The notes under the pieces: model-generated
Database searches by the model: none
What the model saw: the letters and a program-made list of their open reading frames with translations, nothing else
Told to the model about the DNA's origin: nothing
Translations under genes and position numbers: made by a program
Origin: Euglena gracilis
Lineage: Eukaryota
DNA: 64,000 nt
Reading direction: 5' to 3'
Assembly: GCA_039621445.1 (NCBI GenBank)
Contig: CP154954.1
Span: forward strand, 14,302,387 to 14,366,386
Shown here: positions 4,605 to 64,000 of the stretch, in pieces
Numbering within the stretch: the stretch's first letter is position 1
Layout: the number at the start of each line of letters is the position of its first letter

Positions 4605-5204
4605 CAGGGGTTTTTAAAAAAACGGGGGGGTGAGGAAATCTCCCCCACCCACCCCCCCCCCTGGGGGTCCCGGAGGGACCCACAAAATTGACCAAAAAAT
4701 TGCGAAAAATGCCAAAAATAGAACTTCTTCAAAAATTTTCGGCGCAAAGGTGCCGAAAAGTAACCCCTCCCCAAATAATAAACCCCACCTGAGGACCGAC
4801 TTCGGCCGCCCAAATAATAAACCCCCTCCGCAGGTGTGAAAGCAAAGGGAAAGAATGAGTAAAAAATAGCAGAAATGTTGCAAAAATCAACAAAATGGAT
4901 AAAAGTGGTGTACAAATAATGCCAAAAAAAGCACCCTTTTTTCAAAAAAAAGCCCCAGAAAGCCAAAAAAGTGAAAAGTTTGGGTCCACTTTTGACTTCG
5001 AAAATTTTGCCCAAATAATAAACCCCCCCAAAAAATAACCCTGGACCCCAACTTTGAGTGTCCAAATAATAAACGGGGGGTTATTGATTGGAGGAGTTTA
5101 TGTCCCACCCCCCTCCGGGAGGACCCCCTGGGGGGGGGGGGCGGCTCGGCCGGGCCCACCCCCCCCTCCCCCCCAGGGGTCCACGACTAAAAAAAAAAAC
5201 CCTG
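4605..5204. mobile_element. Non-autonomous hAT-type element (MITE), 600 bp
   Basis: Termini are CAGGGGTTTTT / AAAAACCCTG, with a perfect 8-bp TSD GGCACGAC (4597-4604, 5205-5212). The paralogous empty site with a single GGCACGAC is visible in family B copy 2 (~27808-27833, reverse strand). Internal ccaaataataaacccc repeats are present. Confidence 0.9.
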
Positions 5205-8715: not shown

Positions 8716-9065
8716 GGGGGGGGTGAGGGTAGCGGCGTGGCTGAATTTGGTGGTGATCGCTAGTCGTCTGATGAAAAGAGCTTTCAATTGAGGTGTGACT
8801 TTGTACCTGGACGATTGACACAGCCAGATATACGCTCGCGATCGTCGGAATTTGGCAAAATTCAAAATAGCGTGATATTTCAGATCAGTGGTCAGAGATT
8901 GGTCCTGGGAGTGCCTTTTGACCAAAGGTTGGGGACGCCGGTTCTGTCCTGAACCGGCGTCTCTAAAACGCCGCTTTAAACAAAGGGGGGTCGGACGCTG
9001 GTTCTGTCCTGAACCGGCGTCCGCCCCCCCTTTTTGTGGTAAAACCGGCGTTTGGGACGCCGGGT

Positions 9066-12147: not shown

Positions 12148-12454
12148 CAAGCTCATACAATAAAAAAGGACGAAAATGAAAAAAAAGGTTTCTTTGGTGG
12201 ATTCCGGTTGAAGTTGAAGTACTCTCAGAAAAAAGAAGCCTATTCCCAAAACCTTGCATTTGCATATGGTAACAAAAACTCTTTGAATCTTTTTAATCCC
12301 TGAGCACCAAACGTGCTTGGATGTGTTTACATGACTGATCAACTGCGTTGTTGTAATGCAGGGATTTAAAGGTAACTTTACCCCCACCGATAGGAAAAAA
12401 ATCGCCGAAAATGGCCGAAAATGGCAAAATTCTGGGGTCAACTGTAGGTGCTTG
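12148..12454 (+). mobile_element. Short non-autonomous TIR element related to 45667-46962
   Basis: Termini are CAAGCTC.TACA / TGTAGGTGCTTG, with subterminal GGCCGAAAAT repeats. The element is absent from paralogous sites at ~20640 and ~51545. No clear TSD. Confidence 0.7.
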
Positions 12455-14787: not shown

Positions 14788-15094
14788 CAAGCTCCTACAG
14801 TAAAAATGGCCGAAAATGAAAAAAAAAGTTTCTTTGGTGGATTCTGGTTGAAGTTGATCTACTCTCAGAAAAAAGAAGCCTATTCCCAAAAACCTTGCAT
14901 TTGCATATTGTAACAAAAACTCTTTGAATCTTTTTAATCCCTGAGCACCAAACGTGCTTGGATGTGTTTACATGATTGATCAAATGCATTGTTGGCATGC
15001 AGGGATTTAAAGGTAACTTTACCCCCACCTATAGGAAAAAATCGCCGAAAATGGCCGAAAATGGCAAAATTCTGGGGTCAACTGTAGGTGCTTT
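14788..15094 (+). mobile_element. Duplicate of the 12148-12454 element, copied by the tandem duplication
   Basis: CAAGCTCCTACAGT ... ACTGTAGGTGCTT at the same relative position. Confidence 0.7.
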
Positions 15095-18000: not shown

Positions 18001-18463
18001 GCAGTTGCGCTGAAATGCTTTATTGGTGAGAAGGGAAGGAATGGGGGACAAGCGCCTGGGGGTGGTGGGGAGCTCCCCTCACCATGTTCAAAAACTACGA
18101 CATGTGCGCAGAATCGGCACATTACCCACGCCGGGGGGGGGGGGCGCAAGCGCCGGGGTGAGTGGAATCCAGACCAAAGCTCGGTGTGCTTCGGAGAAAA
18201 GAAACGGAAGCCTTTTTTTCCGCAGAAGTCTCTCCCCATTCCTTTTGGAGTCGCTCCATGGAAGCCGTGCGGCAAGCTTGCCACCATTGAGGTGTTGAAG
18301 TGGCGCAAGTCGAGCCCCGCTTCATCTTGCAGCCCCGAAGCTGGTTGTTGCTGGCCCAGGGTGAGGGTGAGGTAATGCGGACTGCCCTGAACCTGAGGTC
18401 TCGGTGTTTGAAGGCAGAACTTTTTGCAAAATGATTTGGGTCCCAGAAAATCCTCATTTTTGG

Positions 18464-18554
18464 TTACCTGGAGCCTACAGGGAGGCTTCAGGGAGGCTGG
18501 TTACCTGAGCCTTCCTGGAGCCTCCCTGAGCCTCCCTGGAGCCTCCGGCAGGTA
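18464..18554. mobile_element. Short TA-flanked MITE built from GGAGCCTCCCT units
   Basis: TA-CCTG...CAGG-TA ends. The same family recurs at 20180-20381. Confidence 0.5.
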
Positions 18555-19364
18555 AGTTATTTTGTACATAGGCCATGTTCGACCCTCAACCCCTCTGCAT
18601 CCGCACACAACTCACGTTTGCCCATTTGCTATTTACACCATGACCGCCGATGGCAGAATTGGTTGAAACATTTATCCATTCGCCACAAAGACGCCATGTC
18701 CGCGTAATTTTGCTTTTACCGTTTACCCGTTTGCTATTTACGCCTTGTCCGCCAAATTTTGTCCACACAAAAGGATGTTGTTATTGGGGAGCTGGGGAGG
18801 GGGGAGTGGGGTAGGGGAGAGAGGGGAAGGGGGAGGGGGGAGGGGAGGTCCGGGGGGTGGGGGGGCGGGGGGAGGGGGCCTGTGGCCCCCTCCCCCCGCC
18901 CCCTTTTCGCCTCCCCCGCCTCCCCCCGCCCCCCCCCCGGGCACAGCCAAATGAACACCATTTTGGATTTCACGTGACCCTTTTTTTGCACGGCAAATAA
19001 TTTAGGTACAATTCTGGCCGGATAAATTCATTTTCGGTTTCAATTAAGCTCTATGTTGCGTCCCAGCCTCCCATTACACCCATTTTTGCTTTTTTGGCAA
19101 ACGGTTTATTTTTTTTTTGCTAATTTGGGCTATTTTGCATTGATTTGGGCAAATATTGGGCCAATTTGGGTCAATATGAACAATGTTATGGCATTTTTGG
19201 TCATTTTGTGCCATTTTGGTGATTTTGGGTATTTTTTGGATTTTTGTAAAAATTTTGTGGATATTGTTGGCATTTTTGGGCTATTTGGGTTATTTGAAGC
19301 TATTTTAGGTCGTTTGGTTGCTCTTTGGGGCTTTTGTGGTCATTTTGGCTCGGTTGTGAGCCAG

Positions 19365-20010
19365 TGGATGCAGGCATCAGGCAAGATGCAGACATGGACA
19401 AGGTGCAGATGCTGGACAAGATGCAGACACTGGACAAGATGCCGTGGATGCAGATGCTGGACAAGATGCAGACGATGGACAAAATGCAGACGCTGGACAA
19501 GATGCAGTGGTTGCAGATGCTGGACAAGATGCAGACGCTGGACAAGATGCAGACGCTGGACAAGATGCAGATGCTGGACAAGATGCAGATGCTGGAAAAG
19601 ATGCAGTGGTTGCAGATGCTGGACAAGATGCAGATGCTGAACAAAATGAAGACGCTGGACAAGATGCAGATGCTGGACAAGATGCAGTGGCTGCAGATGA
19701 TGAACAGGATGCAAATTCCAGACAAGATGCAGTGGACACAGATACTGGACGAGATGCAGATGTTGGACAAGATGTAGATGCTGGACAAGTTGTAGATGTT
19801 GGACAAAAGAGGACAATATTGGACAACATGCAATGGTTGAAGATATTGGACAACATGCAATGGATGCAGGTACTGGACAAGGTGTAGATACTGGACAAGG
19901 TGCAGAGACCACACAACATGCAAATACGGGACAAGATGTTGACATTTGACAAGATTCAGACAACGGACAAGATTCAAATGCTAGTCAAGATGCAGATGTT
20001 GTCCAGATGT
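19365..20010 (+). repeat. Minisatellite of 18/27-nt units (GATGCAGATGCTGGACAA), degenerating towards the 3' end
   Basis: Directly visible tandem units. All unit lengths are multiples of 9, giving open frames such as (DADAGQ)n and (MQMLDK)n. Confidence 0.92.
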
Positions 20011-25900: not shown

Positions 25901-28900
25901 CGGCGTGGAAAGAACGCAAAGCCCCCTGCAAAGAGGGGAAAACAGAAAAACTCAGAAACAGGAAGCGGTAAATATCGCATTGCACTTCAAAAGCTGGAGA
26001 TGTGCAACGGAAAGTGAACACAAGCAATAATATGTGATGTAATGTGGACAAAACAGATGCATATTTTTCGCAAAACAAAAACCACTTTGAAAAACATCTG
26101 AAAATTCTAGTGTAAAATGGAACATTGATGTATGACTCCAACCAAACAATATTATTATTATTCAAAATATTCTGTGCTTAAAAAGTAGATAGCATGGTAC
26201 ATTCTCATTCTCAGACAAATTCCAAGGCTCTGATGGCCAAAAAATGAACGAGAATGTCACAAGCATCATTGTGTGGTTTTAAAGCATGATTGTTTTGTGT
26301 TGGCATACCCTCCTTGATTATTTGTTGGCTAGCGCCGACCATGGCTGGAGCACCAAATTCAGAATGAACAATGGAACTATCAGGAGCCATGTAAGAAACC
26401 ACATGCACAGTGGCCTGGGGCTGCTGAAGCTATTGCAATCCCATCACCACCAGTTGGCCGTCCAAGTCGGCAGAACTTTTGCAGATAGTTGGTACGGTGT
26501 ATTTAGGTGCATTTAATTACATTCGTTTTTTTTTTATTTTTTATGCCATACAGGGCTCCTGGTTTGACCCAGTTCGATTGAACCCAATGTGTGTGATTGA
26601 GCATTTATGCAACTTTTTGATATGCCGCCGTTGTGTGACGAAAAAAAATGCCTTCCCCCCTATTTTTGGGTGGTCCTAATAACGTGTCTCGTTCTTGGTT
26701 TCTTTGTGTATTTTTGTAGCATTTGGCCGGGCAAGAATTCATTACAACAAAGTGTGAAACGTTCCATGAGTCATCCCCATTTTATTGTTCCAAAAAAGCA
26801 AGGGCTCTTCAAGGACAATGGGACATCCCCACCGACAGCTGTTTTCATGTCCGTCAGCCCCGGGCTTCATTCCCTGCCTGATGTTTCCCATTGCAGTGCA
26901 GGGTTCTCCTGTAATGTAACAGAGTGGTTATGAGGATATCCCTCTCTCCCTCTCTCTCTCTCTCTCTTTCTCCCTCCTTTCTCGTTGTGTGTGTGTGTGT
27001 GGTATATGTGTGAACAATAAATAGTTTGGGCGTCCAAAGTCGGGGGACAGGGGGCGCACACTTTGGGAGGTTCATTATTTGATCAAAAAAAAGTCGAAAA
27101 TATTGATTATCCGCACCTTTTGATATTAATTTCATTTTTTTCGATATTTCCGCTTTTTTGTGAAGAAGATTGATGTTTTCCCCATTTTTTTTTTGCTTCC
27201 CTGTCAGGGGTGTGGGGGAAATAAAATTTGGCAAACAAAGTCCCTGACCAGGGTCCATTATTTGGGGATATTTGGAAGGGGCGGGCATGGTGGTGATGAA
27301 TGGTGAAGTTAATTCATAATTATGTGGCAGGGTGACGTTTGTGCCCCCCAAGGTGGTCTCAGGTTTATTGAAGGATAGTGTCACGGTTGCAACTTTCTAA
27401 GGTCTAAGAGTTCTTTGTAAATTTCTGGACAGCAGTATTTTATAAAAGTTCTGTATGAATTGCACAGAATGTTTATTCTCGAAAGGGGCAGGTGATTGGT
27501 TAGGAACAGGTTTAGGGTTCCCCCCCCCCGTTGGCATTCTTCCCTCCTAGATTTGCTCGATGTCAGACTGGTTGAGTTCTTGCCAACAGTGTCAGGACAA
27601 TAAGAATTCATAACAGTAATAGCAATTGTCTTGTGTCAGAAGCAGGCGGCTATTCCATACATTGGGAGCAGAATGACCCTGTCCTCGCCTTGCACACCCC
27701 ACTCCCTCCAGCCCCGCCAGCTCGGACAGCAGTGTTGGGACCCACGGTCCATTCAGCAGGAGCCCTCCGCTCACCCCGGTGCTGACCGCACCACTCGTGC
27801 CTCCACGGTGGTCGTGCCGCTCCATCGATTGCCACCGATTTCGCCTTATCATGAAAACCACACAAGTGCCAATATTGGAATTGTTGTCCAGCTGAAGAGG
27901 TGGAAGGGATTCTGAATTTGAGAAATAGAAAGGCAATGGAGAAATAACTGGTTTCCTCTTACGCTTCCGGGTGCATACAGTAATGTGCAGTGTGCAGATG
28001 TTTTATATTAAAAAATTTATAATAATATTTCATATCAATTAGTTATTTACAATGTTGTTAGTGATAGCATATACCAATTGTTGGAGGAGTGAATTTGTCA
28101 AGGACCGTTTTCAGTCAAGGTCAAACCTTGCCTTCTTTGCTTCCGTACTGACAAGTTTTTTTCATCTTTTTTTGAATATTTTTTTTCAGGCTCTCAATCA
28201 GGTCTCAGGCTTTGTTACGACAGTGCAATTGTGTGTGCCAAACAAATGTGATTGCCGAATTGTATGCCACGCCACAGATAGCCCCCCTTCAGGAGAAACC
28301 CCCCCATTTCACAGCAGAACCCTCTGACGAGGGCTGCCCCACTGAATTACAAAAAAACCAGGTTTGCTTCTGCAGCAATGGTGTCCTGAATCGTACAGTG
28401 TCCCCTGGGAATCTATCCCGCCCCTCTCTCTCTATGTGTGTGTGTGCCTGCGCGCATAAGTATTTCTTTCATTTGTTGGGATTTCCAAAGTTATCCTTAG
28501 GCCGCCCTGAATTAAAGATGTTATTTTCTTGCTGCCCCGAAACGCTTTTTCGATCTCTTTGTGTCACGTTGCTGAATTTCTTTTCATATTTGATGGTGGG
28601 TGGGAAACCCACACTCAAATGGTGTCTTTTGTTGTCATTGCTTTCATTCTCTCGCATGTTCCGTTAGCAGAGTATATTCAACACTAGCATTTCATCCCCC
28701 CCCTCATCATGTCACCCGCATGTCGTACGACCCTGGACTTTGGACTGCAAACCATTGGTCGCATGAAGGGGGGGGTGACTGTCGTTATCGTTGGATGTGG
28801 TGGTGGGAAGGATTTGAACCACCTATTGTGCAATATGAAGTTGAAGTTTTTTTGTTTCTTTCAAATTGATTATTTTTTTTAAAGGATGATGGGATGCAGA

Positions 28901-29620
28901 GTGTCGGATAACAAGGTGTGAAATGGAGCAATTGCAGGATGGACAGCGAAGCGGCCTGCCGCTGATAGCCAGTCTCCACCTGCTCCCCATGGCCTCGGTG
29001 CCCATGCCAGGCTTCTGCCAACCACAACCCTTTCTTTCGTTCATGACCCCTATTCTTTCAACTGTCCCTGGTTTGATGCCAAGAAAATTCTTCAATAAGA
29101 AAATTATTAATGCCAAGTAACTGTCAATATTTCTTGCATTTGAGGAAATAATGAGAATCATTTTTGTAAACTCGGTGCTACTGTGGCCCAGCCACCCACA
29201 ACCCCCACCCCAAAAGAAGTTTGGCCAGCTCTTTTCCATTCTTTTCCATTTTTTTACGCCCAGTTGCATGGCCGTTAGGACATTTGTTCTTTTAATGTAT
29301 GTTGAAATTGGTATGCCGTTATGCACGTTCCTTTGCCTGCTGTTTAGCGACAGCTCTTCGCAGTTTTTTTTGTTTTTTTTTATTATATTTTTTCTCAAAC
29401 AGGAATTTGAAGTCGATTCATTCAGTATTATTTTCAGGCTTGCTAGGAAAACAATTTTCAAAGATTTTATCACATTGATTCCAGGGACTGCGCCAACGGA
29501 CCCCGTGCCATATGCTGACGACACATCCCAGCATCTTCCTCTCGGCCTGAGAATGGAACGCGAAGTGAAATTTTTATGTTATCCGAAAGTTTTGTCGCCA
29601 AAGACATTGGCTGGGCGATG
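22980..29620 (-). mobile_element. Family B repeat, copy 2 (putative spliced hAT-like transposase remnant) with nested insertions
   Basis: Colinear with 58170-62750. - strand peptides occur in hAT domain order: KAKSVAIDGAARP (~27840), SANHSLVEALDNGV...LRTILPYITKLY (~23250-23350), and GTLQMLSKSGMRLNAL (~22980-23025; GGWNGTLQM in copy 3), which resembles RWNST..ML. Confidence 0.55.
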
Positions 29621-32614
29621 GATAATTCAATAAGGGATGCTCAAAAAGATTGGACATAATAATGTCCTACTAAAGTTGTGATTGTACACTTGACCCACAA
29701 CCGCCTTGGGGCAACATTTCGACCTCATTGTGCAATGTGACCCCCCAGGATGTGTATTTGGTTTTTGGCCCAAAGATTTTGGGGTTCAGCAAAAAGCGTT
29801 AAAATGACCCGGGAAAATTTTGTCCATTTTTTTCGTTTTTTTTATTGAATTTGGAGTGCTTAAACCCAGAGTGACCGACCCCCTGGAGGGATGACTGATT
29901 CCTTTCTCTAAAAAACAAGTGACAGACTCGTTGTTGAAAAAGAGGAAGTAACACCCCCAGGTCCGGTCTTAGGCGGCGCAACGGAATTTTATTTTGCAGT
30001 TATGTGCAAATGTTCCCAGCGTTTTCTGCTAAAATCACTTCCCGCATCTGGGAAAACGCGATACCCGCTTTAACACTGCAAAAATTGACGCCCCCACTAG
30101 CCTTAGTGGGGGCGGGGGTGTGGGGGGGGGGGTTGTGGGGAGGAGTTGGGGGGGGGGGGGGGCGGAGGTGGTGAGAAACCCGAAATAAATTTTCTCTGTT
30201 CCTGTGTGTTTTTTCGGAATCGCTGTGAAATGTGCTTTTTTGGGGGGGTCATTTTTGGGGTCAAAAAACAATAAAAAATTTGCTCATCAGAGTCCAAAAT
30301 TGGCATTTTGACTGTTCTGCTGGTCAACTTGTTTCAGGTTTGTGAATGGGAACAGTGTGCAATGTGCGACGAGGAACGGTTGTATGCAAATGCAATACTG
30401 ATTTTTTCATCATTTTCACAGTTTATGTAAACCGACATGAAAATGATCGGCCTTCAGAGATTATGTTCCCACCCGTATGTGTTTCATTTCGGCTTTTCGG
30501 CTTTTTGCCATTTTTCTCACATTTTGCTTTTTCGCCGTTTTTCCGACAGCAAAAAAAAAGCTGTTTCGCCGTTTTCACCGATGGCGAAGTGATTTTTTCG
30601 CCGTTTTGACAAATAGCCATTCTGAAAAAAATCGGATTCTGATGGGTGGGAACTTAAGTCATACAAAATTGCGCATGGTGTGGAGACAAATTTTTTGTCA
30701 CAGTACGTAACCTACCGAACAGGATGCATTATCTGAGACCAGAATTTCTTCATTATGCAATAGTTTGCAATAATCCAGCATTCACAGTGGTTGGTGTGCA
30801 AATGTGCGCGTGAATTGTATTTTGAAAAACAACGAGTTCCGGAATTCAAAGTTGCGCATCTGTGATATTCCTGTTAACTGGATCAAAATACCGGCTTTTG
30901 TTGCTCTTGTTGCTGCATTTTTGCATTTGTGATGATGCCAGTTTTCCATGGACCTGAAACATGTCCACCCCCCCCCCCATTCTGACGACCCAGTCGTAGA
31001 GGATAACGTACCAACGACCCCCGGGGGGTTGTTGACAGCCTGGTAGCTGCCAGAACGCCATCACCTGCAATTGTGTAACGTGACTGTTGCGAAATCCAGG
31101 GGACGAACGGCAGGGGCTTTTGAGGATTTACCATAAGCATAGTGCCGCTGGTGGGCGTGGTCCGCGACGTGCACTTGGTTAACCACCTACCAGAGGTCTT
31201 CAATCTCCGTTTGGAAATGGACCTGGACCTGAAAAACCTGGTTGTTGGGAAGAGGGTGTGATAGCTGGAGTTGTGCACACCCGAAGAAGCTAATGCCAGT
31301 GTTGGTTGGGGCGGTACCTGATGGGGTCTGTCTGAACTGGACCAGGTTTTGAATGGTGTTGAGCTCTTAATGGGACTTGCACGTAATGGACGGCCGAAAA
31401 GACTAGCATTGCAAATTTCCCATAAATTATTATTTACAAATTCCACACCTGCAATTTACTGTTTCTTACAGTAATCTTTGAAAGGTTAAGAGGTCAGCGA
31501 CCCCCTCCCATACCCCTACACCCTAGACACCCCTTTGCGACCGAAAACTGGAGGTTGGAGGGGGGTCCTCCCACCCCCCCCCTCCCCCGAGATTCCCATA
31601 CAAGCCTGGGGATGTTATTCGCTGCCACACTTTACGGATTGGGCCGGAGCCAAGGTCCACAATCTGGCTGAGGTGTCTCAAGATCAATCCGCTTTTAGTT
31701 GTAAAAATTTGATTTTTTTTGATCCTCAATCAAGTTTTGTGGGCAACAAATTTTTTTCTGGACACCCAAAATTTTTTTGTGGTTCACCTGTGGACACCAA
31801 AAAAATTTTGTGGTTCACATGTGGACACCCCAAAAAAATTGTGGTTCACATGTCTTTTGTGAACCACACTAAATGTGAAGGGGCTCATCCCCGCGGCAAA
31901 TTTGGGGCAGACTCCCGGCCCTTCCCGGGACTCCGGGCCCTTCTCTCCGCTGTGGACCATTTCCCCTCCAGTCTGCAACGCCTTGATAAACACCCCAAAC
32001 ACACACTCCTTCCCTCCCATAAACCCCCATCATTTTCCCCTCCAGAAATCACCCAAACAAAATGTAAAACCCGAGATCTTTGGAGAACGAAGATGGACCG
32101 TTTATTCCTCCTCATTTCACCCGTCCTCATTCCTGCTGACGGTGACGAAAACCGAAATGCAACAGAAAAGAGATTTTCCCCCATTTTCATCCCCACACAA
32201 AAAAAATAAAATTCATTTGACCCCCACACCCCACACATGCTGCTTCAGAAAGTAAAAAGAAACTTGTTTTTGCCCCACAGCCCGTGCAGAATTTTTCTGT
32301 GGTGGCGTTGAAAACATATTTTTGAGATTGTTTTTCATTTTCGTACACGACAGTTTAATGAACTTTTTTTTTACAAATTAATATTATTCCACTCCAGTTC
32401 AAAAAGTGTTTATTTCTTGAAGTGAATATTTCGGAACCTGTTTGTTTTATTGTCATATTCTGGCTTCCTTGGGCAGCTGTGCGTAACTGTGTGGACCAAC
32501 CATTCCATGTCAAAAACGATTATATGAGGCTCTGCGGACCCCCCTGGGGACCCCCCCCCCCGGAGCCTTCCCAGAGGGCAGCCCAAATCAGTGAAAAATG
32601 TTTGCTCGTGGCAT

Positions 32615-33075
32615 TTCAAGTCAGTTTGGCACCCACCCACCCACGGTTGAAAATAGGCCAATGTGATTTTGGCCTTTACATTCCAGTGGGTGGCCATTCC
32701 CATGTTCTCCATTCCACATCACAGCCTCCGTCGCCATATAACCACCGTGCGGGCCATGTTTGCCGCATTCCTTTAGGTTACTTAGGTTACATTTCCTGCT
32801 ACAAGTTCACATGTGTTGCTGCTCTTTTCCAGTCACTCTCATTTTCTAACGTCCATTTTTGTCTCCTCCCATTCTCTTTCTGATTTCTTTGTTCTTTGTA
32901 TTTTTTTGTTGAATTATTTGAGTGCTAGAAAATAGGACAACCTCAGTGGTACGTGGGGAAAACCGCGATCCTTTTTGGAAGGACATTTGGAATGGCCAAC
33001 ACATATGCTTCCTTCGAAAAAATGATCCTGGTTGATTCTGGGTTTGTTCCATTGGAACTATCTGCTCCAGCATAG
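32615..33075 (-). repeat. Module duplicated at ~63525-64000
   Basis: Shared cagtttggcacccaccca, ccagtg.tggccattcccatgtt, ctgctacaagttcacatgtg and cattggaact. Confidence 0.8.

Positions 33076-52342: not shown

Positions 52343-52422
<80 letters not shown>
52343..52422. repeat. (TA)n microsatellite
   Basis: Perfect AT dinucleotide tract of about 80 bp. Confidence 0.98.
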
Positions 52423-52427
<5 letters not shown>

Positions 52428-54949
52428 CATAAAACACCACAGAGTCATTTTTTTGCAAGAAATCTTTTTTTTTCAAAAAAAAACGATAAACACCATACAC
52501 CATAGTCACGCCAAAAGAAAGCGTCACAAAAAAAGACATGGTTGGTTTCCCCAATTGCATATTTTTATTTCATGATGTGATTACTGCTGCTTTCATCGTC
52601 TATGTACGCATTCGCGCACACTACCGTCAGTTTTACTGTGGTGTGGGTGTCACAGAGTTTAAACATCACTGGGATAGTTATAGACACTGAATTCTACCGA
52701 TAATTGGTGGCAGTCCTCCTATGTCTTTTATACCCTCATCAACCATCAGTGGCAGATTTAACAGCCAGTTTCTACCTGTTTTATTTGTTGCTTGTGAATT
52801 TCCTCTCTGTTTGTAACCAACTTCAAAAAAAACCTTCACAACGCATTGCAGGGCTTCAGAAGCAACCAAAGGGTGGATATGTCACCCCACCCCCAAAAAA
52901 CCACCTCCCGCAAGCAGTTGTCAAGGAAAGAGAAGGACCGGGGTTGTGTGTATGTGTGTGTCTGTGTGTGTGTGTGTCTCACCCCCCCGTCAAACAAATT
53001 GTTAAATTGAAATGAAAATTAAGAGTATTTGATTAAGATTTGAATTATATTAGAACAGCAGACCCAAAACAACGATGGGCCCAAAAATTACCTGTTATTG
53101 TTTGCACAACCTTTCATGATCACATCTTTTTTGGTGTCTGACACGGTACAATAAGCAACATTTTTTGTTCCACAGGGGCGTTTTGTTCCTGCAACGCGTG
53201 CCGATGACCGCCAGCAAAGCCACCGCGCCGCGGCCGCCCCAGCCTGCCAAGCTCGTAGTCTGCCTGAAGGGCCCGGCTGCCAAGCGGTCCGCGACCAGAG
53301 GGGGCCCGTGTCGGTACCACTCCTGCCTCAACTCCTGCAACGTGTGTCAGCATCGCATTTCTGGGGCGGTATTTTTTTCCAAGCTGTTTTATCTTTTACA
53401 CCAGTGAAGTACGATATATTATGGTGTCGTCAAGTTACGATGCATGGTGTGGCGATAACAGCTCCCCCCCCCGGCGATTCCAGGGGTGGAAAAGTTGAAG
53501 AATTTGGATGAAATATTGTCTTCAAATTAATAAAAAACATTAACCCAAAATGCTGGGGAATTACCCCCAACATTGTGGACCCCTCCCCGAGGTCCTTTGG
53601 CACCATCTTTATCCTCCCATCAACGGGAACACACAGCACCCAGCAGCGGGGATTCACTAGTGCTTGTTTGATGGCGGTGGGGGCATGTTTTTTTGTAGCC
53701 TCTCAATGGTCCACCCCACCACCGTCCAACGTCATCGACATTTAGCCCCCTTGTCCACCGACCACTTATATAAACACCAAGCACCCCGGGTGGGGCATGC
53801 AGGTCAAGGGGTGCGTATAACCCACCCTGGTCAGGGGTTGTTTGGCCACGGTTGGTGGGCAAGGGGGGGGGGCAGGGGGTGGCGGGTGCAATTGTTATGA
53901 TTCACCCCAGTTGATTTAATCAAACCCCAGTTCACCCCAAGTTCATTATTAAACTTTTCTGGAGTCGCAGTCTGCAATGTCTGTTGTTGATTTGTAATTC
54001 CTCCTGGTTTCACAGTGTTCTTGGGGCTACTGAAGAGAACGGAGTCAAATGGTGAATGCACAGGAAGGATGGTGCCCATGCACAGGAAGGACGACCTCCT
54101 CATCGTTGTCTCCAATCTTCCATCCTTCTATTAATGTTTGTGTCAAATTTATGGGCCGACATTTCTAAGTTTATCTCCTTGCAGGTGTTTAACCTCCCTC
54201 TCTCCAAGCATCACGCCACCTCAACCACGCCAGATGCCATAAGGGTTGGGGTTCAGATTTGGAAATGGTAGGGTTTGGTGCAGGGAATGGGTTTTGGAAT
54301 GGGATGGGGTTAGAATTTGAAGGTTGAGGATATGGATAGGGTTTGGGTGGGGACAGGGTCAGGTCGATAAATAAGTTTAGGAAGAACGTCTGCCGTTTAC
54401 TCTGAAAATATATTGTTTTTTTTCCAACAAAAAATGATATTGGGGATTGAAGTGATACCTTCTTTAAAGTGAATTTAGATGGCCTGGAATGCATTTTTCA
54501 CTGTTTTGGGGTTTTTTTTGCGCACATTTGCTTTTTTGACCAACTGCGTTGCCATCACTGCACAGGGCGGCGTGCCCAACAAGCCGAGACGAACAAGTGG
54601 GGACGTACAACACCGACCTCCGGCGTCCGAGAATTTTTTTGACAATTCCCACTTTTCTTCACCCTTTTGCACACCTTTTTGGGGTTTCCACCGGAAGGGA
54701 GAAACCGTCAATCAAAACAGGTGCGACACAAAACACTGGTTTTCGGGGAGCAACCCCCATCCGGTGAAGCCATGGTTCCAAAGCACCGGAAGTAAAAGTT
54801 GACTTTCTGGGGGGTCCGGGTCCCCCCCCCCCCGGGATCGGTCTGGACCTTGCTTGGCAGGTTGGGGGGGATCCGAACCACCTCCGGGGTCCGGGGGGAG
54901 GGGGGCACAGCCCACATCTAATCCATATACCCCGCCCCATATTTACCCC

Positions 54950-56183
54950 TCTTACTGCACCCATGAAGAGCCTGGGCAAGGCTGAGCCTGTCGTGGTGAG
55001 CGGCACAGACGGTCCGGGTCTCGGTGTATGCGAGAGGGGTTGAAGAGTCCCTCTTCGCCATTTTCGCCACCCACCACCGGCGCCGAGGCAGCCTCCCCCT
55101 CCGGGATTTCGGGTGCCTCCCTCATTGCTGGGGTGGGACGACGGCGGCGACGATCGGCCAATGGCCTCATCGACGCCTTCTTCTTCCTCATCCTTATCCG
55201 CTGTGGAGAACTCAGGAGGGGGCAACCCCTTCTGCTGGGCTTCCTGTCTCCTGCTGCTCGAACCCGCTTCACCTGGCAGAGGAGCTTCTCAGGCAGCTTG
55301 GATGTGGGCTTCGTGCTGGCCCCTCGCCCCACCTTAGTTGCGCGGAGCGTTTGGATCCTTGCGTCACTGGATGGCCTCCGTCTGTGCCTGTTTCTCCGTC
55401 GCCTTCACCTCCAGGATATGCTTCAGCACCTCAGAAGTTCACAGCGGCTCGGCATTCCACCAGACCGGCATGCTGCACCGTGTTCCAGATGTGCTCAGTG
55501 TACTCGGACGCCTGTATTTTCTCCTTCCCCGTCAGCACTGTCACTATGTGCAGGAGGCTGGGGTTCGACACGTGGTCCCAGAGCATCACGGGGGAGGGGG
55601 ACTTCAGATGGGTGGAGACGGGACATTGCACAGGTGCGCATTACATCGTATGCATCAACAGACAGATATGGAACTTGCACATTCATCCCTGTTGGAATGA
55701 ATGCGCAAGTGCGCATTCTTATACTACTACCCAGGTGAATGATGCATCCAGACTGATTTCATTTTTTAATATCATGGGTCACGTGTTCGTGGTGTGGTCA
55801 CACACACACAACACATATTTTGAGCTTATCCATCTCGGTGTCGTGCAGGAGTATGTGGAGGGAAAATTTCACCGGCCGGGCCCGCGACGACGGAGCTCTG
55901 GCTGGAGATGGCCACGCCCCTCTTCGCCTGCAGCCCCACCATCCGCTTTTTGGAATTCTGCCTGTTATGGCACCCCTGCCTCGGACGCCGCTGCGTAGCA
56001 GTTCACCCTTTTCATCGTCCTCAGCTCCTCATGGACCTCCCAGGCGTCGTCCACAGGCCAAGTGTACCGGGTCCTCGGTCATGACCTCTTCAAAGAGAAG
56101 AATGCGCAGATGTGCAATCATGTCATGTCACATATTGACTGTTGCAATGCATATCCGTGGCTCTACAAAATATATCGTATCAT

Positions 56184-56214
<31 letters not shown>

Positions 56215-56780
56215 CCAGACACAATGCTTACCGTCTTCTGCGTCCGTTTGTAGCCCGCCTTGCGCAGCGCCAGAACTCAACACCCACCGGTACCGCCCTG
56301 GCGCCTCCTGCCGCTCTCCCTCCTTGTAGTTGTCCTCCGACATCTTCTTCAGGCGGCCGTGAGGTGCTGCCCAACAACTACGACATGCTCCCGGTCTGTG
56401 ACGGAGGGTGCGAGGCAGGCAGGAGGGGAAAGGCCCACCACCGGCCCAGGGGCGTCGGGCAACACCACCACCTTCTTCTTCTCCCTCTTCTTCTCCGCCT
56501 CCAATTCCTCCACTTCCGCGTCTTGGGGGATTTGGGTTGGAACGGGTTGCAAGGAGGTGTAGCTGCCACAGCTGCTCCAAGTAGTGGCTGCGGAACGGGA
56601 CATGGGGTCCACCAGGGGCAGCACCGCCACCACCACCCGTTCAGGTGTTCCGGTAACGCCGCCTGTAGTCGTTGTCGAACCACAAACCGGGGTTCCCGGC
56701 CAGGTCGCGCCGCAACTGGGCCTGCCGCTCCAGGGCCAGCTGGGAACGGTAGGCAGCGGAGTGAGCAGGGTGGCGGGGCG
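54950..56780 (-). pseudogene. Decayed spliced gene with a possible Myb/SANT-like (trihelix) segment
   Basis: GC-rich exon-like blocks are separated by AT/TG-rich spacers, with a clear donor ...AAGACG|GTAAG at ~56230. Frame-shifted peptides TDREHVVVV..HGRLKKMSEDNYKEG..RYRWV..LRKAGYKRTQKT resemble W.....L...GY.RT..QC. Confidence 0.35.
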
Positions 56781-57199
56781 CACCCTAACCCTAAGTTGTA
56801 CCCTAACCCTATTCCATCATTAACGGAAAAAAAATTTGACCCCCCCTCCCAACTATAGGCCCCCCCCTGGGGGGCCCTATGGTTGGGAGCTGCCAATTTT
56901 GACCCCCCTCCAAACTCTAGCCCCCCACCCCCTGGGGGGCCGGGCCCAGTAGTTGGGAGCTACCAAAATTTTTAGCTTTGGTCTCTGGACAGGCTGGATT
57001 TACCCCAGGGGAGGGGAGTCCAAGGCGAGGGAGAAGCATTCAGGATGCAGCAGCCTCGTAATCATGTGAAACTCTCCGTTCTGACACGTACTCACATAAC
57101 GCAAGCAAGGGCTTGAACTGTGTCAAACCTTGGGGGTAGCAGCAACCACCACTGGCACGCTTCCAACTGCTGGTGGTGCCAGAAGGGGGATTTCGTTTG

Positions 57200-57375
57200 G
57201 TTATATGTATTGTGTAGATGCGCATTTTCCAACTGACCAACATCTGCGCATTCACACCTTCCTTTCTACCAGAAGGGCAATCTCTAACAAATACACCCTC
57301 GATTTCTGCCCTCGTCCTCTTACACACACCGGACCAATTAGAACCTTCCAATTGGAAACAGATGCCACATCACCG
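57200..57375 (-). pseudogene. Possible PIF/Harbinger (DDE_Tnp_4-like) transposase fragment
   Basis: CGICFQLEGSN...RDCPSGRKEGVNAQMLVSWKMRIY (frame of ORF 57040..57351) loosely fits G.IGAIDGT....RKG..S.NVQ.V.D..M.I. Confidence 0.3.
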
Positions 57376-58762
57376 GACCGTAGGCCCCACCCCACTCAAA
57401 ACCACCCATCACATCCATACCACCCCAATTATTTTCTCCAAAATCCCTCAATTGCTGCCCCGGCGGGGTGAAGGGGTTGGGCAGCGTCAACTGGAGGTCA
57501 CCTCACATTCTAGGGTAGGGTTTTGGGGATCGGTTGGGCAGGCACCCCTGTCCGGTGCCCGGTCTTGTTTTCTTTACCCTTTTTGCAAAAACCAACCCGA
57601 CCCGGGGTACCCCGGGCTACCCCCCTCGGGTGGTGTGCCTGCTAGGGGCAGGCATCTTATGGCACTCACCCCCACTCCCCCCCTGTCGGTAAAAACAAAA
57701 CCTCACAAGCACTTCAAGGTTCACAAGCACTTTTGTAGTTTATGGCCAATCTCATGCCACCATCCGAGGTATGTGCCTCTCCCGTGCACCCATAGTGCCA
57801 GTCGGTGCCCGCCAGCTGAGAAACAATGAAGAAAACCTTGTGATCCCTGCACCATTGTGTCGTGCAATGAATCACGTCATCAAAAGTTGTTCAGTTTTGG
57901 GGTTAACGGAATGTTGCTTTTGACATATTATTGTTTTTCTGTTGGGTTTTTTAATTCGGCAGCCCATTTTGCTCACTCATTTGTGAGTGTCCAGTGGTTT
58001 TTCCATGGCCAAAGAGTATTTAAAACGTCTATCAATCGATAGGAGGGAGCAGGTTTGGAGGGACACGTTTCATTTGAGATAGCTGCCTGTGCAGCCATCT
58101 CCCAGCCGGAGCATTGCTATGTGCTTCAGAAAGCAACTGTTTTGCTTCATCATATTTGCCCGACAATGGTGGATTTAACCTCATCCCACACTTGGACGGC
58201 ATTTGCAACGTTCCGTTCCATCCGCCCCCACCCCCCCCCTTTCCCCGGCAAGCCATCCTCCCAACAAAATGCTCTCCTCTCTGTCGCTGCCCTGCGGTGC
58301 CGATGTGCGGGTTGAGTGGACGGGCTCCAGAGCGGCTCGGACGGCGTGCAGGCGATTGCCGTGTTTAGCCGAAGGTTGGGGTATCCTTCTGTGACAATCA
58401 TGTCCCGAATCGTAATCTTCCCTGGATGGGTATGCTTTTTATGATTGCATTGGATTGCATACAATTTGTAAATATAGGACAAAATAGTACGCAGGGTCGT
58501 CGACCATTGTTTTTGTATGGGTCTGCAGCACGCCGCTTCCACCAGAGAGTGATTTCCAGAAACAAATTCATATGCTCGCGCCAACAATCAGCGATTTTTT
58601 ATTCATTACTCGTCTTTTTTTCCCCTGGATATTTCATTCTTGAGGGGGTTGTGGTCGTTGGGTTATAGAGCCATCGTTGTTGCTATTTACCATTTGGCCC
58701 AGTCGGCCCTCTCAGTGCCAACCAGGGCCGATTTTGCCGATACTCGTAGGGCTGGTGGGGAA

Positions 58763-59022
58763 CAGGCTTCTTTATAAGTCACCTGACCCCCCCCCCCGGG
58801 TGAGGGGGGATGGGTGGGTGGATCCGGGCCGGACCCCCCTGGGGGGGGGTCCCGCGCCGGAGGCGCCGGGTATTCCTTTTCGGGGCGAAGCGCCAAAATT
58901 TTTTGAAAATTGCCTTTAGCGGGCCCGATTTTGGGGGGGTCCCCCCCCAGGGGGGGGTCCCACACCACCCTGGGTGGGTGGGGGGGGGACCCCCCCCCCC
59001 GGCGGTCTTAAAAAGAAGCCTG
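58763..59022. mobile_element. hAT-type MITE, 260 bp
   Basis: TIR CAGGCTTCTTT(A/T)TAAG and perfect 8-bp TSD GTGGGGAA (58755-58762, 59023-59030). Confidence 0.92.
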
Positions 59023-60332
59023 GTGGGGAAGCTGCCACACCGCGTGCACCTCGTGCAGCACCGCATGCGCCGCATGGCGCACCGTGTGCACCATGTACAT
59101 TTTTTCCAGAAATTCTCTGCATGAAATTACTCACTTGATTTTGCCGTACTGAAGCTGGAAAAACTGTGCTGGCTGGATCCCTTGGACCCGGCTGGCACCC
59201 GAAAGCTGGCAAAAAGGCCCAAATACACCTGCCTTGGGTTTTTTCCCGGCCAGTTTATTGAGGTGGAAATTTAAATAACGACAAAAAAGGGAATTTGACA
59301 ATTTTTTTTGGCCGTTATGGACCTCTTTTAATCTTTTTTTTTTGGTTCTGGCCAGTTTCGCTGCCCTGTGAAGATTTTATTGACACTCACCCTCACCACT
59401 CCCACTCACTTTTTGGGGGAGTGTCAGCCATCCGAATGGCAGTGTTCGCTGGAAAAAACGGTGCTGGCTCGGACTCCCCGGCAGGGGTGGCGGCAGGGGG
59501 GGTCCAGGCTGAAGTCATCAAAAAGTCAAGTAACTGAATTCATCGAATATTCAAAATATTGTGTGTCAAAGAGTAAAAAGTATGGCATATTCTGTGACAA
59601 AAATTCCCAGCCTTGACGATGAAAAATGTATGACATTGTTACAAGTATCATTGTGTGGTTTTGAATCATGATTATTTTGTATTGGCATACCCTCCTGAAC
59701 CTCCGGCCAATTAAGTGCCGGCTGGAACACCAAATTCAGAATGAACCATGGAACTGTTAGGAGCCGTGTAAGGGACCACATATGCACAGTGGCCTGGGGC
59801 TGCTGAAGCTCTTGCAGTCCCATCACCGCCAGTTGGCCATCCAAGTCGGCAGAGCTTTTGCTGATAACTAAGGTTCATTTATTACCATTTGAACCAATTG
59901 CCATAGTTAAGGTGCATTTACTAATATTTGAACTCCAAGCCTCCAAGCCAATACACCTTTGTTGGGTTTTATACCAATTTTAAAAATATTTTATAATTAT
60001 TCTATGTTCCATTTTTTTTTTCATATTCTGGCTTTATGTGCAATAACGTGTTGTTGTTGTTGTTGTTGTTGGTTTTTTCTGTCTTTTTTTGCTGCATTTG
60101 GCCAGGCAAAAATGCATTCCAACAACGTGTGAAGTGTTCCATGAGTCATTCCCAAGTTAAAGCGCGCCCACCTCACTGTTCCATACCGACAAAGGCTCTT
60201 CAAGGACGAAAGGACATCCCCACCGACGTCACCGTTCATGTCCGTTAGCCCCGGCCTCCATTCCCTGGCTGATATGTCCCGCTGCAGGGTTCTCCTACAA
60301 TGTAAAAGAGTGGTTATGAGTTTTTTTGTCGT

Positions 60333-60369
<37 letters not shown>

Positions 60370-61356
60370 GTGTGTGCTTGAGTGTGTCTGTCTGTATATT
60401 GACAAGCATAAATAATTTGGGCGTCCAAAGTCGGGGGACCTAAATTCACTTGATATGAGAGGGTGAGTTCTTGCCAACAATATCAGAACAATAAGAACTC
60501 AGAACAATAATAAAAATTGTACCGTGTGTTTGCCAAAAGCAGGCTGCTATTCCAGTATGACCCTGTGCTCGCCTTGCACACCCCACTCCCTCCAGCCCCG
60601 CCAGCTCGGACAGCAGTGTTGGGACCCACGGTCCATTCGGCAGGAGCCCTCCGCTCACCCCGGCGGTGACCACGCCACCCGTTCTTCCACGGTGGTCGTG
60701 TGGCTCTGTTGATTGCCACCGACTTCGCCTTATCATGAAAACCACACAACTGCCGATACTGGAATTCTTGTCCAGCTGAAGAGGTGGAAGGATTCTGAAT
60801 TTGAGAAATGGAAAGGCAATGTAAAATAACCTTATTTCTTTTGTGCTTCCGAGAGTATACCGTAAAGTGCTTGGTGGAGGTCTTAAATGCATTTTTTTCT
60901 GAGGTAATAAATGTTGCATAACAATTGGTTATTTACAATATTGCTTGTGGCAGTATACGTTTTCAGTAACGAGAAGCCTTGTCTTCTTTTCTTTCACACT
61001 GTCAAGTGTTTTTCCTACAGTTTTTTTTTTGAATATTTTTTTTAGGCTCTCAATCAGGTGTAAGGTTTTGTCACCAGGGTGCAATTGTGTGTGCAAAACA
61101 GATGCTATTGCCGAATTGTATGCCATGCCACAGATAGCCCCGCTTCTTGAGGAGCCTCCCCATTTCACTGCAAAACCCTCCGACGAGGGTTACCCCACTG
61201 CATCACAGACACACAACCAGGTTTGTTTCTGTGACAATCATGTCCCGAATCGTACAGTGTCCCCTGGGAATCTCTCTCTCTCTCTCCTCTCTTCTCAATC
61301 GGTGTTGCTGGGGGTTGCCGACCATGTGTGGGTGCGTGTGTTGTCAGTCTGTTGTT

Positions 61357-61429
61357 GCGGTTTCGCCCCAGGCTGGCAGGTCGGGTATCGTCAGGGGTGA
61401 CGACCCTGCCGACCCTCGTCCCCGACCGC
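61357..61429 (-). ncRNA. Type III hammerhead ribozyme, copy 1 (core intact, stem II with two mismatches)
   Basis: The - strand reads GCGGUC^ GGGGACGA-gggucggcaggg-UCGUCaCCC CUGACGA u ACCCGA-ccugccagcc-UGGGGC GAAACCGC. It has a GUC triplet, the CUGANGA and GAAA core, 5-bp stem III and 8-bp stem I with one bulge. Confidence 0.82.
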
Positions 61430-61709
61430 TCTTGTATGTGTGGTGCAGACCGTTAAAAACGAGCTCTGCGCCACCCTCCCAGGGGGGGGGGGTCGGGGGG
61501 CTGAAAAAAATAGCCCCCGGAAAACAAGGCAGCGCAGGACGGAAAAATGGCTCCGCTACCTACGGGGCACCCCCGGGAACAGCACCATTTGGGGAGGGCT
61601 AGTCAAGGCCCTTTTGGTGCGGAGAAAGACAAAATTGCCGAAAAATACGGACAGTACCCGAAGGCGAGAGCGTGATCGGTGTGGTGGGCGTGTGTTGTCA
61701 GTCCATGTT

Positions 61710-61782
61710 GCGGTTTCGCCCCAAGCGGGCAGGTGGGGCATCGTTACGGGTGAAGACCCTGCCAACCCTCGTCCCCAACCGC
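61710..61782 (-). ncRNA. Type III hammerhead ribozyme, copy 2 (stem II perfect, core mutated)
   Basis: The - strand reads GCGGUU^ GGGGACGA-ggguuggcaggg-UCUUCaCCC GUAACGA u GCCCCA-ccugcccgcu-UGGGGC GAAACCGC. CUGA has changed to GUAA, so it is probably inactive. Confidence 0.72.
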
Positions 61783-61879
61783 TCTTGTCTGGGTGTTGTC
61801 AGCCTGGGTGTGTTGGTTGCTGGATGGCTGGCTGGACTCCGAGGGTGGGGTCCCCTCCGGCTTTTAGGAAACCCTTGCA

Positions 61880-61928
61880 TACCCCAGTACCCCAGTACCC
61901 CAGTACCCCAGTACCCCAGTACCCCAGT
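61880..61928. repeat. (TACCCCAG)n octamer tandem repeat
   Basis: About six perfect units. Confidence 0.95.
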
Positions 61929-64000
61929 GACACTGTTCATTCATTCGTTTTGTTTGAGAAGTTGTAGTTCGTCCGTTTACAATTTCGGTGCCGTTCCACC
62001 CAGCAGGATGGACAGCGAAGCGGCCTGCTGCTGATAGCCAGTCTCCCCATTCCCTCGGTGCCCATGCCACGCCTCTGCCAATCGCGACCCTTTGCTTTGT
62101 TCATGACCCATATTCGTTCAACTGTCCCTGGTTTGAAGCCAAGAAAATTCTTCAATGTCTTTTCAGAGGAGCCTTGGAAGCACAATCCAGTCATTGTTTT
62201 TCTGCTTTTCAAGTTGTATTTGCCGTCTTCCAGCATCCCCCCAACCAGCAGTTTCTTATTTTGGCTTGCTGGATCCCCGGATTCTGAAACAGCCAGAGAA
62301 TCAGCAATTCATCAATGGCTAGTTCATTTTGACAAACAATCAGAAACATGTTTGTAGAAGCGTTTTTCTTGTGGCCAACCAACCCACGACCCCCACACTC
62401 AAGAGAAGTTTGGCCAGCTATTTTTTTTGTTTCTAACGTCTTTTTACAACGAGTTGCATAGTCGTCAGGGCATTTCTTTTTCGTGTGTCGTAAATGTTAT
62501 GGCGTAATGTACACCATTTTTTTTTCTCAAAAAGGAGTTTAAAGTCAATTCCTTCAGTATTATTTTTAGGTTTGCTTGGAAACCAATTTGCAAAAATTTT
62601 GTCATGTGGATACCAGGGACTGCGCCAACGGACCCCGTGCCATATGCTGACGACCCATCCCAGCACCTTCCTCTCGGCCTGAGAATGGAACGCCAAGTAA
62701 AAACCCTGTGTTATCAGTGGGGTTTGTCACCAAAGACATTGGCTGAGCAATGTATAATTTAATAAGGGACAATCAAAAAAGGTTGGGCAATGGATGCTTT
62801 CCCACCCCATTTGAAATGGTACATCTGATATACAAAAGGCTTTGGGTCAATATATTATATTTTTTTGCATGCAGCTGTTCTTCGTTTTCACATTGCACAC
62901 TGTTCCCATTCACAAACCTTAAACAATTTACACTGAAAACAGGAAAAAAGGTAGCTGTGCATTTCATGAGGCAAACGAAAGAACAAGCAGCATGTTTTCC
63001 ACAATTTCAGCCGAAGGGATGGATTGCGCAAATGCGTTACACTGACCATGTGCACATTTGCACACACCATCCATTTGTGTACAGACCCCGAGGCAGGTAA
63101 AAGCGAAAACGTTCATCAAAAATTCCAGGGGAGAAGCAGGAGAGAAACAATGGGTGTAGGGTGTGTGTAGGGGGGAGGGTTCCGGGACTGTCGTGCATAC
63201 CAGGGATTTTGTGTCGTGCAGAAATAAAACAGCCAAAAAAAAAGAAATTCGGCCAAAGCTGTGGAGTGACAGCCCCAAAAAAAGAGAATTCGCTCAGATC
63301 TCTCGCAGTCATGATCCCCCTCGATCCAATTTCTCAAAGTTCTGGAATTCCTTGCGAAGAAATAAAATTCCGTTAGTGTATGTGTTTGCGCACACCAACC
63401 AAAAGAAGTTTATTTGTGAGTTATGCCGTCCAAGTCAGTGAAAAAAAGTGTACTCCTGGCATTTCACCCAGTTTCAGTTCCAGGTTAAATCAATTTCAAT
63501 TCAAAATCAGTTTCAATCAATTTCAGTCAGTTTGGCACCCACCCACCCACTGTCGGAAAGGGCTGTTATGGCCAATATGGCTTTGGCCTTTATATTCCAG
63601 TGGTTGGCCATTCCCATGTTTTCCCTCCACCGCTTTTCCACATCACGGCCTCGGTAGCCATACGGCCACCGTGCAGGCCATATTTTTTTTTTAGGTCACC
63701 CCTCCTGCTACAAGTTCACATGTGCTGCTTCTCTTTTCCAATCACTCACATTGTCCATCACCCTTTCTTTCTTATCTCCCCCCATTCTCTTTCTGACTTC
63801 TGTTTCTGATTCTTTCTTTTTTATATTTTTTTTGAATTATTTTAATGCCGGAAAATAGAACAACGTCAGTGGGATGTGGGGAAAATTGCGATTCTTTTTG
63901 GAAGAGCATTTGGAACGCCCCTCGCACAATCTCCCATCAACAACTATCCCAGATGATTCTGGGCCTGTTTCATTGGAACTTGGTGCTCCAGATTGGCGGA

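Follow-up and report, generated by a model that had tools for sequence, protein, structure and literature searches.

Near the end of a 64,000-nt stretch of Euglena gracilis DNA (contig CP154954.1, positions 14,302,387 to 14,366,386 of the forward strand; hereafter the window, whose own numbering is used throughout) lies a pair of hammerhead-like motifs, encoded on the minus strand within a short direct repeat. With moderate confidence we read this locus as a decayed, truncated ~1.35-mer of an abundant, non-coding, GC-rich repeat of ~353 nt that carries a genuine type III hammerhead ribozyme and is retrozyme-like. The parts of this reading differ in strength. Judged from the sequence of the family, its minus-strand RNA is in all likelihood a genuine type III hammerhead ribozyme, and by analogy with known elements the prospects of a retrozyme-like life cycle are about evenly balanced.

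Two damaged hammerheads in a direct repeat

A repeat search of the window yielded a pair of 93-nt repeats with 87% identity (61353–61445 and 61706–61798, start-to-start distance 353 nt). A blastn self-comparison extended the pair to 61326–61448 and 61679–61802, with 85.6% identity over 125 columns. A 23-nt IUPAC pattern derived from the repeat matched twice in the 64-kb window, both times within the pair, where 0.00 matches were expected. The parts of the element are as follows.

61326–61448, unstranded: direct repeat copy 1 (repeat search and blastn)
61679–61802, unstranded: direct repeat copy 2 (repeat search and blastn)
61357–61429, minus strand: hammerhead copy 1, type III, with the cut after GUC, C at 61424 (motif reading and fold)
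61710–61782, minus strand: hammerhead copy 2, with GUU at 61777 (motif reading and fold)
61328–61800, minus strand: high-copy family stretch of ~1.35 units of the 353-nt repeat, in the order hammerhead 2, spacer, hammerhead 1 and a short tail (contig depth; limits accurate to about ±10 nt)
61449–61678, minus strand: spacer of the unit, non-coding, GC 0.59, with poly-C and poly-U runs (contig depth and composition)

The GC content of the ribozyme element is 0.60.

Read on the minus strand, each copy starts with the 5' strand of helix III (GCGGU), followed by the residue at the cut site and helix I; then come the core heptamer, an extra U and helix II, and GAAA with the closing 3' strand of helix III (CCGC) completes the order. 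Helix III is open and has five base pairs (GCGGU/ACCGC in copy 1), and helices I and II are capped hairpins, which makes the arrangement type III. Helix I is built up from eight pairs, bears a single bulged A and is closed by a loop of 12 nt. Helix II consists of six pairs with a 10-nt loop and is separated from the core heptamer by the single extra U, which follows A9.

The core of copy 1 is intact in all its parts (CUGACGA, the extra U, GAAA and GUC), and 17 of its 19 designed pairs are standard. The two failing pairs, out of six in stem II, are an A·C at the closing position 10.1/11.1 and a G·G. Copy 2 has a fully paired stem II (six pairs) and one C·U mismatch in stem I, so that 18 of 19 pairs are standard. 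Its core reads GUAACGA, with two invariant residues changed relative to CUGANGA. Judged by the conserved residues of the core (CUGANGA and GAAA, with U-H at the cleavage position), copy 1 is accordingly complete and copy 2 is not. A preliminary description, made from the letters of the window, had given coordinates for the region (61295–61880), the same minus-strand type III reading and cleavage positions at 61424 and 61777, and had noted that each copy is damaged at a different place (stem II in copy 1, the core in copy 2); in all these points it proved correct. Because copy 1 has lost two pairs of stem II and copy 2 two residues of the core, this locus is most likely inactive and the local copy decayed.

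A short direct motif (CUGACAACAC-like) is present on both sides of each hammerhead on the minus strand, at 61801–61810, 61333–61350 and 61686–61700.

The repeat family and its majority sequence

The segment 61240–61878 was compared, at a likeness of at least 80%, with two sets of DNA contigs (runs X1 and X18) and with two raw RNA runs (X24 and X21). A run search returned 20 rows from 16 studies that contain the stretch or part of it, under two organism labels. On the stretch lie 2064 contigs from X1 (organism A) and 753 from X18 (organism B). With so many contigs in two species, the element belongs to a large multi-copy family. The summed depth per bin in X1, a quantity that differs from copy number, ranges from 83,380 to 757,619 within 61328–61800; in the flanks it is 35 at 61284–61305 and 1,440–3,621 at 61812–61877.

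The spacer is part of the family, though at lower abundance than the ribozyme part and with more variation. Its depth in X1 is 31,825–191,305, and it accounts for 25 of 40 differing-letter rows shown. Depth over the ribozyme exceeds that over the spacer by a factor of 3 to 20, as expected if subfamilies with different spacers share the motif. A secondary insertion in the spacer, which had been suggested earlier, finds no support, as family contigs of both species cover the spacer.

At four positions within or just upstream of the copy 1 ribozyme nearly the entire depth of both contig sets carries a letter other than that of copy 1. All four majority letters are those of copy 2 (depth units carrying the letter, out of all at the position).

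61382, C to G: X1, 485,868 of 488,527; X18, 50,418 of 50,617
61386, T to C: X1, 511,620 of 513,132; X18, 47,211 of 47,335
61411, G to A: X1, 408,023 of 409,607; X18, 33,781 of 33,906
61436, A to C: X1, 568,966 of 571,828; X18, 43,838 of 44,090

G at 61382 and C at 61386 convert the A·C and G·G of copy 1 into standard pairs. When the four majority letters are introduced into copy 1 in silico, all 19 designed pairs are standard, including G10.1–C11.1, and the calculated energy of the fold is -28.0 kcal/mol. No family difference in CUGACGA, GAAA or GUC of copy 1 is found among the 40 of 59 differing-letter rows shown. Contigs on copy 2 make up a minor share (~9,000–15,000 depth units). They carry C at 61745 in 8,255 of 8,992 and C at 61754 in 14,435 of 15,481 depth units, which is the state of copy 1 in the core and in helix I, respectively. 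The earlier proposal that complementary defects of the two copies hide a complete ribozyme is thereby upheld, since the majority letters of two species complete stem II of copy 1. By this majority sequence, typical members of the family are predicted to carry an intact ribozyme. Loops 1 and 2 contain a 6-nt run of Watson–Crick complementarity in both window copies. With the majority letters the run reaches 10 nt, counting one G·U pair, a length attained by 79 of 20,000 shuffled loop pairs, and the two loops probably form a tertiary contact.

A single 155-nt contig of X1 (depth 234) covers 61630–61784 without any difference and includes the ruined core of copy 2. The exact defective variant of copy 2 may therefore be multi-copy itself, or X1 may cover this locus deeply.

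The motif was further analyzed with a descriptor of our own, which requires CUGANGA, GAAA, U-H and three stems and tolerates an insert of 1 nt. Applied to the window, it accepted copy 1 only without the requirement for stem II; neither copy passed in full, and there was no other match anywhere in the window. Three further occurrences of CUGANGA...GAAAC, at 12657, 15295 and 62429, were rejected by the descriptor. The majority form of copy 1 passes; its stems count 3+/6/5 pairs and the insert is 1 nt long. In random sequence (150 × 64,000 nt, 9.6 Mb, both strands) 0 matches were obtained at each of four settings, which combined first-order Markov sequences of window or element composition with stem minima of 3/4/4 or 3/6/5. 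The motif is beyond chance at the level of the family only, not for the two window copies alone.

Transcription of the family

RNA reads on the stretch numbered 154 in X24 and 41 in X21, taken from about 6 and 5 in 100 of the respective run. Over the ribozyme the X24 reads have a depth of 44–55 with the first mate on the plus strand and of 4–6 with the first mate on the minus strand. Assuming the usual stranded protocol, the X24 RNA is that of the minus strand and has the polarity of the ribozyme. The reads of X21 run in both directions. The letters that restore stem II are present in 50 of 51 X24 reads at 61382 and in 50 of 50 at 61386. As the reads carry the majority letters, copies with the intact motif are transcribed. 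A further CUGACAACAC-like motif copy is seen in the X24 transcript ~30 nt downstream.

Insertion or replacement in a repeated segment

The element is located between two parts of a segment that recurs within the window. The parts 59507–61292 and 62003–62786 are found again, on the same strand, at 26159–28433 and 28934–29653 with 76–87% identity, and 59507–61292 is also found inverted at 6832–4009. In all three copies the portion corresponding to 60065–61292 ends in a (TC)n run. This run is part of the flanking segment and not of the ribozyme element, because the paralogues have a TC/GA-rich tract at the junction without the element. The features at this junction are the following.

61271–61292, plus strand: (TC)n run that ends the segment 60065–61292 (self-comparison)
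61293–62002, unstranded: 710 nt unique to this paralogue, containing the element and the (TACCCCAG) array, and bordered by two segments found again at 26691–28433 and 28934–29653 (self-comparison)
61880–61928, unstranded: tandem array (TACCCCAG) x 6.1, adjoining the element (repeat search)

In the 26159–29653 copy the junction holds 500 nt of unrelated, AT-rich sequence, and a portion of this filler is found again in inverted orientation at 409–770 (76%). As the 710 nt are present in this copy only, the element arrived by insertion or replacement, though not by a clean insertion.

The repeated segment is longer than 3 kb and occurs three times in the window. Its junction fillers are the ribozyme element, the AT-rich 500 nt and ~3.2 kb with (TAGA)n.

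Contrary evidence and alternative explanations

A number of observations weigh against the favoured reading and are given here together with the alternatives on which they bear. The first group concerns the motif itself. At gathering thresholds, Rfam gave 0 matches of any family in the whole window, and within 61200–61950 (751 nt) no hammerhead was found at E ≤ 10. When copy 1 was searched as a 96-nt sequence, it matched the full length (1–54) of the Rfam model RF00008 (Hammerhead_3) with 12.1 bits and an E-value of 4.1, at a gathering threshold of 48.5, and two unrelated families scored equally well. Copy 2 gave no hammerhead match at E ≤ 10 in a search of its own. The Rfam hammerhead models to which the preliminary description had pointed thus yield no match at curated thresholds for either copy. 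Since Rfam recognises neither of them, the case for the ribozyme rests on the family. There is, moreover, no compensatory change between the two window copies, and exact-pattern scans for further copies in collections of metagenome contigs, prokaryote genome contigs and viral contigs gave 0 matches.

The second group concerns folding. The 6-nt run of complementarity between loops 1 and 2 of the window copies arises often when loops this rich in G and in C are shuffled (2101 and 1088 of 20,000 shuffles). In addition, part of the core can pair with stem I, and loop 1 with loop 2, in an alternative, nested hairpin. This hairpin is more stable than the hammerhead fold (-37.5 versus -28.0 kcal/mol for the majority form, -35.3 versus -20.2 kcal/mol for copy 1) and is also the fold of minimum free energy. 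It could represent a state in which self-cleavage is switched off, or it could be a ground to doubt activity. In viroids, an alternative fold serves as such an off state. The 353-nt monomer of the locus folds no better than shuffled sequences (z = -0.62).

From these results one might conclude that the likeness to a hammerhead is accidental, in which case the RNA would never cleave itself and what is conserved would be the long hairpin, if anything. The missing Rfam match at curated thresholds, an alternative hairpin that is favoured by ~9.5 kcal/mol in the majority form and the lack of read ends at the cut site (see below) would all fit such an accident, and the high identity among the copies could reflect recent amplification. 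We nevertheless regard it as quite unlikely. Core, cut site, ordered helices, the G10.1–C11.1 pair and 19 of 19 pairs would have to coincide, a combination that even the relaxed descriptor detected nowhere else in the window and 0 times in the 9.6 Mb of random sequence screened at each setting. The window copies, furthermore, fail exactly where the majority of the family keeps the motif.

The third group comes from the RNA. The reads over the stretch show no site at which many molecules start or end, and the depth at 61424 has no dip (49.4, 44.5 and 40.5 in the three surrounding bins). Reads exit the unit at 61326 (n = 42) and 61665 (n = 46) into sequence unlike the window, with an agreement of 0.97–0.99. 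Among the joints shown, none has RNA support, in ~5–6 in 100 of each run and with libraries that may lose small circles. The reads thus give no indication that the RNA is cleaved, forms circles or is transcribed in tandem; missing ends and a missing dip at 61424 are compatible with cleavage followed by ligation. The X24 reads seem to come mainly from one unit embedded in a different transcript. For arrays elsewhere the sole hint is given by single contigs, which step back by 273 and 350 on the stretch.

The last group concerns the marks of a mobile element. A candidate target duplication is limited to a word of 8 nt shared by 61823 and 61311, and it is weak, as 229 of 5000 shuffled flank pairs matched or beat it. 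A 12-nt motif, which we take to represent the tRNA-Met primer site, does not occur in the element and gave 3 matches in the window at 2 mismatches, compared to 3.12 expected. No purine run of at least 9 nt was found in 61300–61810, and no reverse transcriptase in the parts of the window that were scanned.

RNA and insertion data together bear on a second alternative, according to which a real ribozyme resides in an ordinary satellite or a repeat similar to a short interspersed nuclear element (SINE), or is a passenger of a host transcript. It would then at most trim transcripts, and there would be neither circles nor circle-based retrotransposition. A dominant X24 transcript with one unit in unrelated flanks, and with reads that cross the cut site, is what this explanation would lead one to expect. 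The same holds for a monomer without a special fold and without primer site, purine tract or clear target duplication, and the huge summed depth, compared to 2 copies in the 64-kb window, suggests long arrays elsewhere. It accounts less well for a short 1.35-mer at a place where two paralogues have other sequence, which calls for some means of dispersal. According to the models of PMC4918200 and PMC7229834, partial multimers of this kind would be expected when a template that is circular or multimeric is copied. On balance we consider this alternative unlikely.

A third alternative derives the unit from the terminal repeat of a Penelope-like element, mobilised by a family of which a putative reverse transcriptase fragment would lie at 1450–1800, as the preliminary description had it. 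Partial tandem copies are typical of Penelope-like elements. In addition, a 2026 preprint makes the case that animal retrozymes stem from Penelope-like elements (10.64898/2026.07.22.740005). The hammerheads of Penelope-like elements and of animal retrozymes are, however, described as type I in PMC7229834, PMC4209133 and 10.64898/2026.07.22.740005, whereas the present one is type III. The supposed fragment did not hold up either: the six frames of 1–5000 contain no Pfam family at E ≤ 0.1. The candidate, a minus-strand frame with an FDD-like motif located 60 kb away from the element, has no protein relative at E ≤ 0.01 (among proteins of near length only) and was rejected; nor was a reverse transcriptase detected in the other stretches scanned. 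An origin of this kind is very unlikely in our view.

The Pfam searches covered all six frames of 1–5000, 54001–58001 and 59001–64000, the plus-strand frames of 10001–18501 and ten long open reading frames, and found no family in any of them. The only rows returned were below threshold (Baculo_p48, 13.2 bits; FhuF_C, 13.0 bits). The window contains no tRNA genes.

Of the earlier designation as a decayed non-autonomous ribozyme retroelement, possibly mobilised by a Penelope-like family, the mobilisation by that family finds no support. 'Decayed non-autonomous ribozyme element' is a fair description because the element is non-coding, multi-copy, transcribed and sited where the paralogues carry unrelated sequence.

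Comparison with known ribozyme elements

Retrozymes have been divided into two classes, the plant retrozymes with long terminal repeats (LTRs) and the animal non-LTR retrozymes (PMC4918200, PMC7229834, PMC7761336 and 10.64898/2026.07.22.740005). Plant LTR retrozymes contain type III hammerheads 400–1000 nt apart in LTRs of 300–400 bp; they also possess a primer site and a purine tract, show 4-bp duplications and have a GC content above 55% (PMC4918200). Animal non-LTR retrozymes contain type I hammerheads in tandem units of 150–450 bp with a GC content below 50% (PMC7229834).

The present element resembles the plant LTR retrozymes (Cervera, Urbina and de la Pena 2016, PMC4918200) in that type III hammerheads are located within direct repeats of a non-coding, dimeric and transcribed element with a GC content above 55% (0.60 here). 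It differs from them in the spacing of the ribozymes (353 nt versus 400–1000 nt), in the length of the direct repeats (~125 nt versus 300–400) and in a copy number far above the tens to hundreds reported. It also lacks a tRNA-Met primer site and a purine tract, and no 4-bp target duplication is seen. The ribozyme itself has long complementary loops and an extra U, in contrast to the canonical stems of 6 and 4 pairs with short loops.

With the metazoan non-LTR retrozymes (Cervera and de la Pena 2020, PMC7229834) the element shares a short unit, a very high copy number, transcription and the lack of LTR, primer site and purine tract. The metazoan hammerheads described there are type I, many of them having a weak helix III and acting as dimers, and the GC content is below 50%, whereas here the hammerhead is type III with a stable five-pair helix III and the GC content is 0.60. 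Tested as a tandem-unit element, the 353-nt unit lies within the range of 150–450 bp, with only ~1.35 units at this locus and, again, a GC content of 0.60. Kinship with the axolotl repeat Rtz_353 was considered and rejected despite the equal unit length of 353 nt, since the axolotl repeats of 331 and 353 nt carry type I hammerheads (PMC7229834). The shared length appears to be a coincidence.

The hammerheads of Penelope-like elements (PMC4209133) are similar in having a nucleotide inserted between A9 and G10.1, in keeping the G10.1–C11.1 pair and in occurring in repeated, partly tandem DNA. In contrast to the present motif they are minimal type I hammerheads beside a reverse transcriptase/GIY-YIG gene, of which none was found here in the stretches scanned. 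A natural extra residue, A10, is also known from the hammerhead of chrysanthemum chlorotic mottle viroid (CChMVd), where an A10 to U exchange raised the rate of cleavage in trans 3–4 fold (PMC3705267).

Deltavirus-like RNAs of a toad and a termite, as well as the genomes of termites and dipterans, contain long-helix type III hammerheads that have a 6-pair stem II and loop–loop pairing (PMC7936874). More generally, Watson–Crick pseudoknots between helices I and II are predicted in ~40% of hammerheads. The present motif shares the 6-pair stem II, the complementarity of loops 1 and 2 and helices longer than those of the viroid type with these atypical type III hammerheads, to which that found in cereal yellow dwarf virus-RPV satellite RNA also belongs (PMC7936874 and PMC3088659). 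Theirs have a first stem I of 5 pairs, an internal loop and an extra hairpin, whereas helix I is simple here, with 8 pairs, one bulge and a 12-nt loop. The genomic examples are presented in PMC7936874 as isolated motifs, whereas the present one belongs to a high-copy repeat family.

Compared by sequence and predicted fold, the ribozyme is nearest to these pseudoknotted long-helix type III motifs. The element as a whole lacks defining features of both retrozyme classes and shares traits with each. Full-text searches of the literature, covering the main texts, brought up no description of a comparable type III hammerhead repeat in high copy number.

Other features of the window

Further repeats are located outside the element and its repeated surroundings. 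A 2.64-kb unit is duplicated in tandem (10836–13479 and 13477–16174, 96% identity). The tandem units are enclosed by direct repeats of ~570 bp (10161–10727 and 17804–18365, 93%), and their plus-strand frames contain no Pfam family. The CUGAAGA...GAAAC matches at 12657 and 15295 are copies of one another within these units and are not hammerheads. Another repeat pair is formed by 63520–63991 and 32613–33070. The region 19360–19860 is minisatellite-like, with overlapping internal repeats (77–81% identity) and long open frames on both strands.

Simple arrays include a (TAGA)n array of ~190 nt at 3657–3848, (AT)40 at 52343–52422 and several (CA)n arrays, and the 64-kb window contains 20 poly-G or poly-C runs of 12–19 nt. 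The composition of the window is unusual, with observed-to-expected ratios of dinucleotides of 0.50 for TpA, 0.63 for CpG and 1.3–1.4 for CC/GG and AA/TT. Taken by themselves, these ratios and arrays would hint, as no more than a guess, at an animal whose genome is large and rich in repeats.

Proposed life cycle and implications

By analogy with the retrozymes of PMC4918200 and PMC7229834, the following life cycle can be envisaged for active members of the family. Transcripts that contain two ribozymes would cut themselves into monomers of 353 nt, and these would be ligated into circles. A reverse transcriptase supplied in trans would then copy the circles. If more than one round of the circle were copied, integration would leave partial multimers such as the 1.35-mer found here.

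The local copy itself is dead and without functional consequence. Its interest lies in the family. We tentatively raise the possibility, rather doubtful at present, that the family represents a third retrozyme architecture, defined by an abundant, LTR-less, GC-rich unit of 353 nt with a type III hammerhead competent as a monomer, a Watson–Crick loop contact and a U after A9. If true, it would join the plant class, which is type III and LTR-dependent, to the animal class with its short tandem units. A high-copy family that mixes the traits of both would blur the division of retrozymes into two classes. It would also provide a new test case for the mobilisation of ribozyme repeats and for the origin of the type III hammerheads of viroid-like and deltavirus-like RNAs. 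Finally, it would show that the Rfam model and the usual descriptors miss such variants on account of their long loops and inserted U, so that surveys may undercount them.

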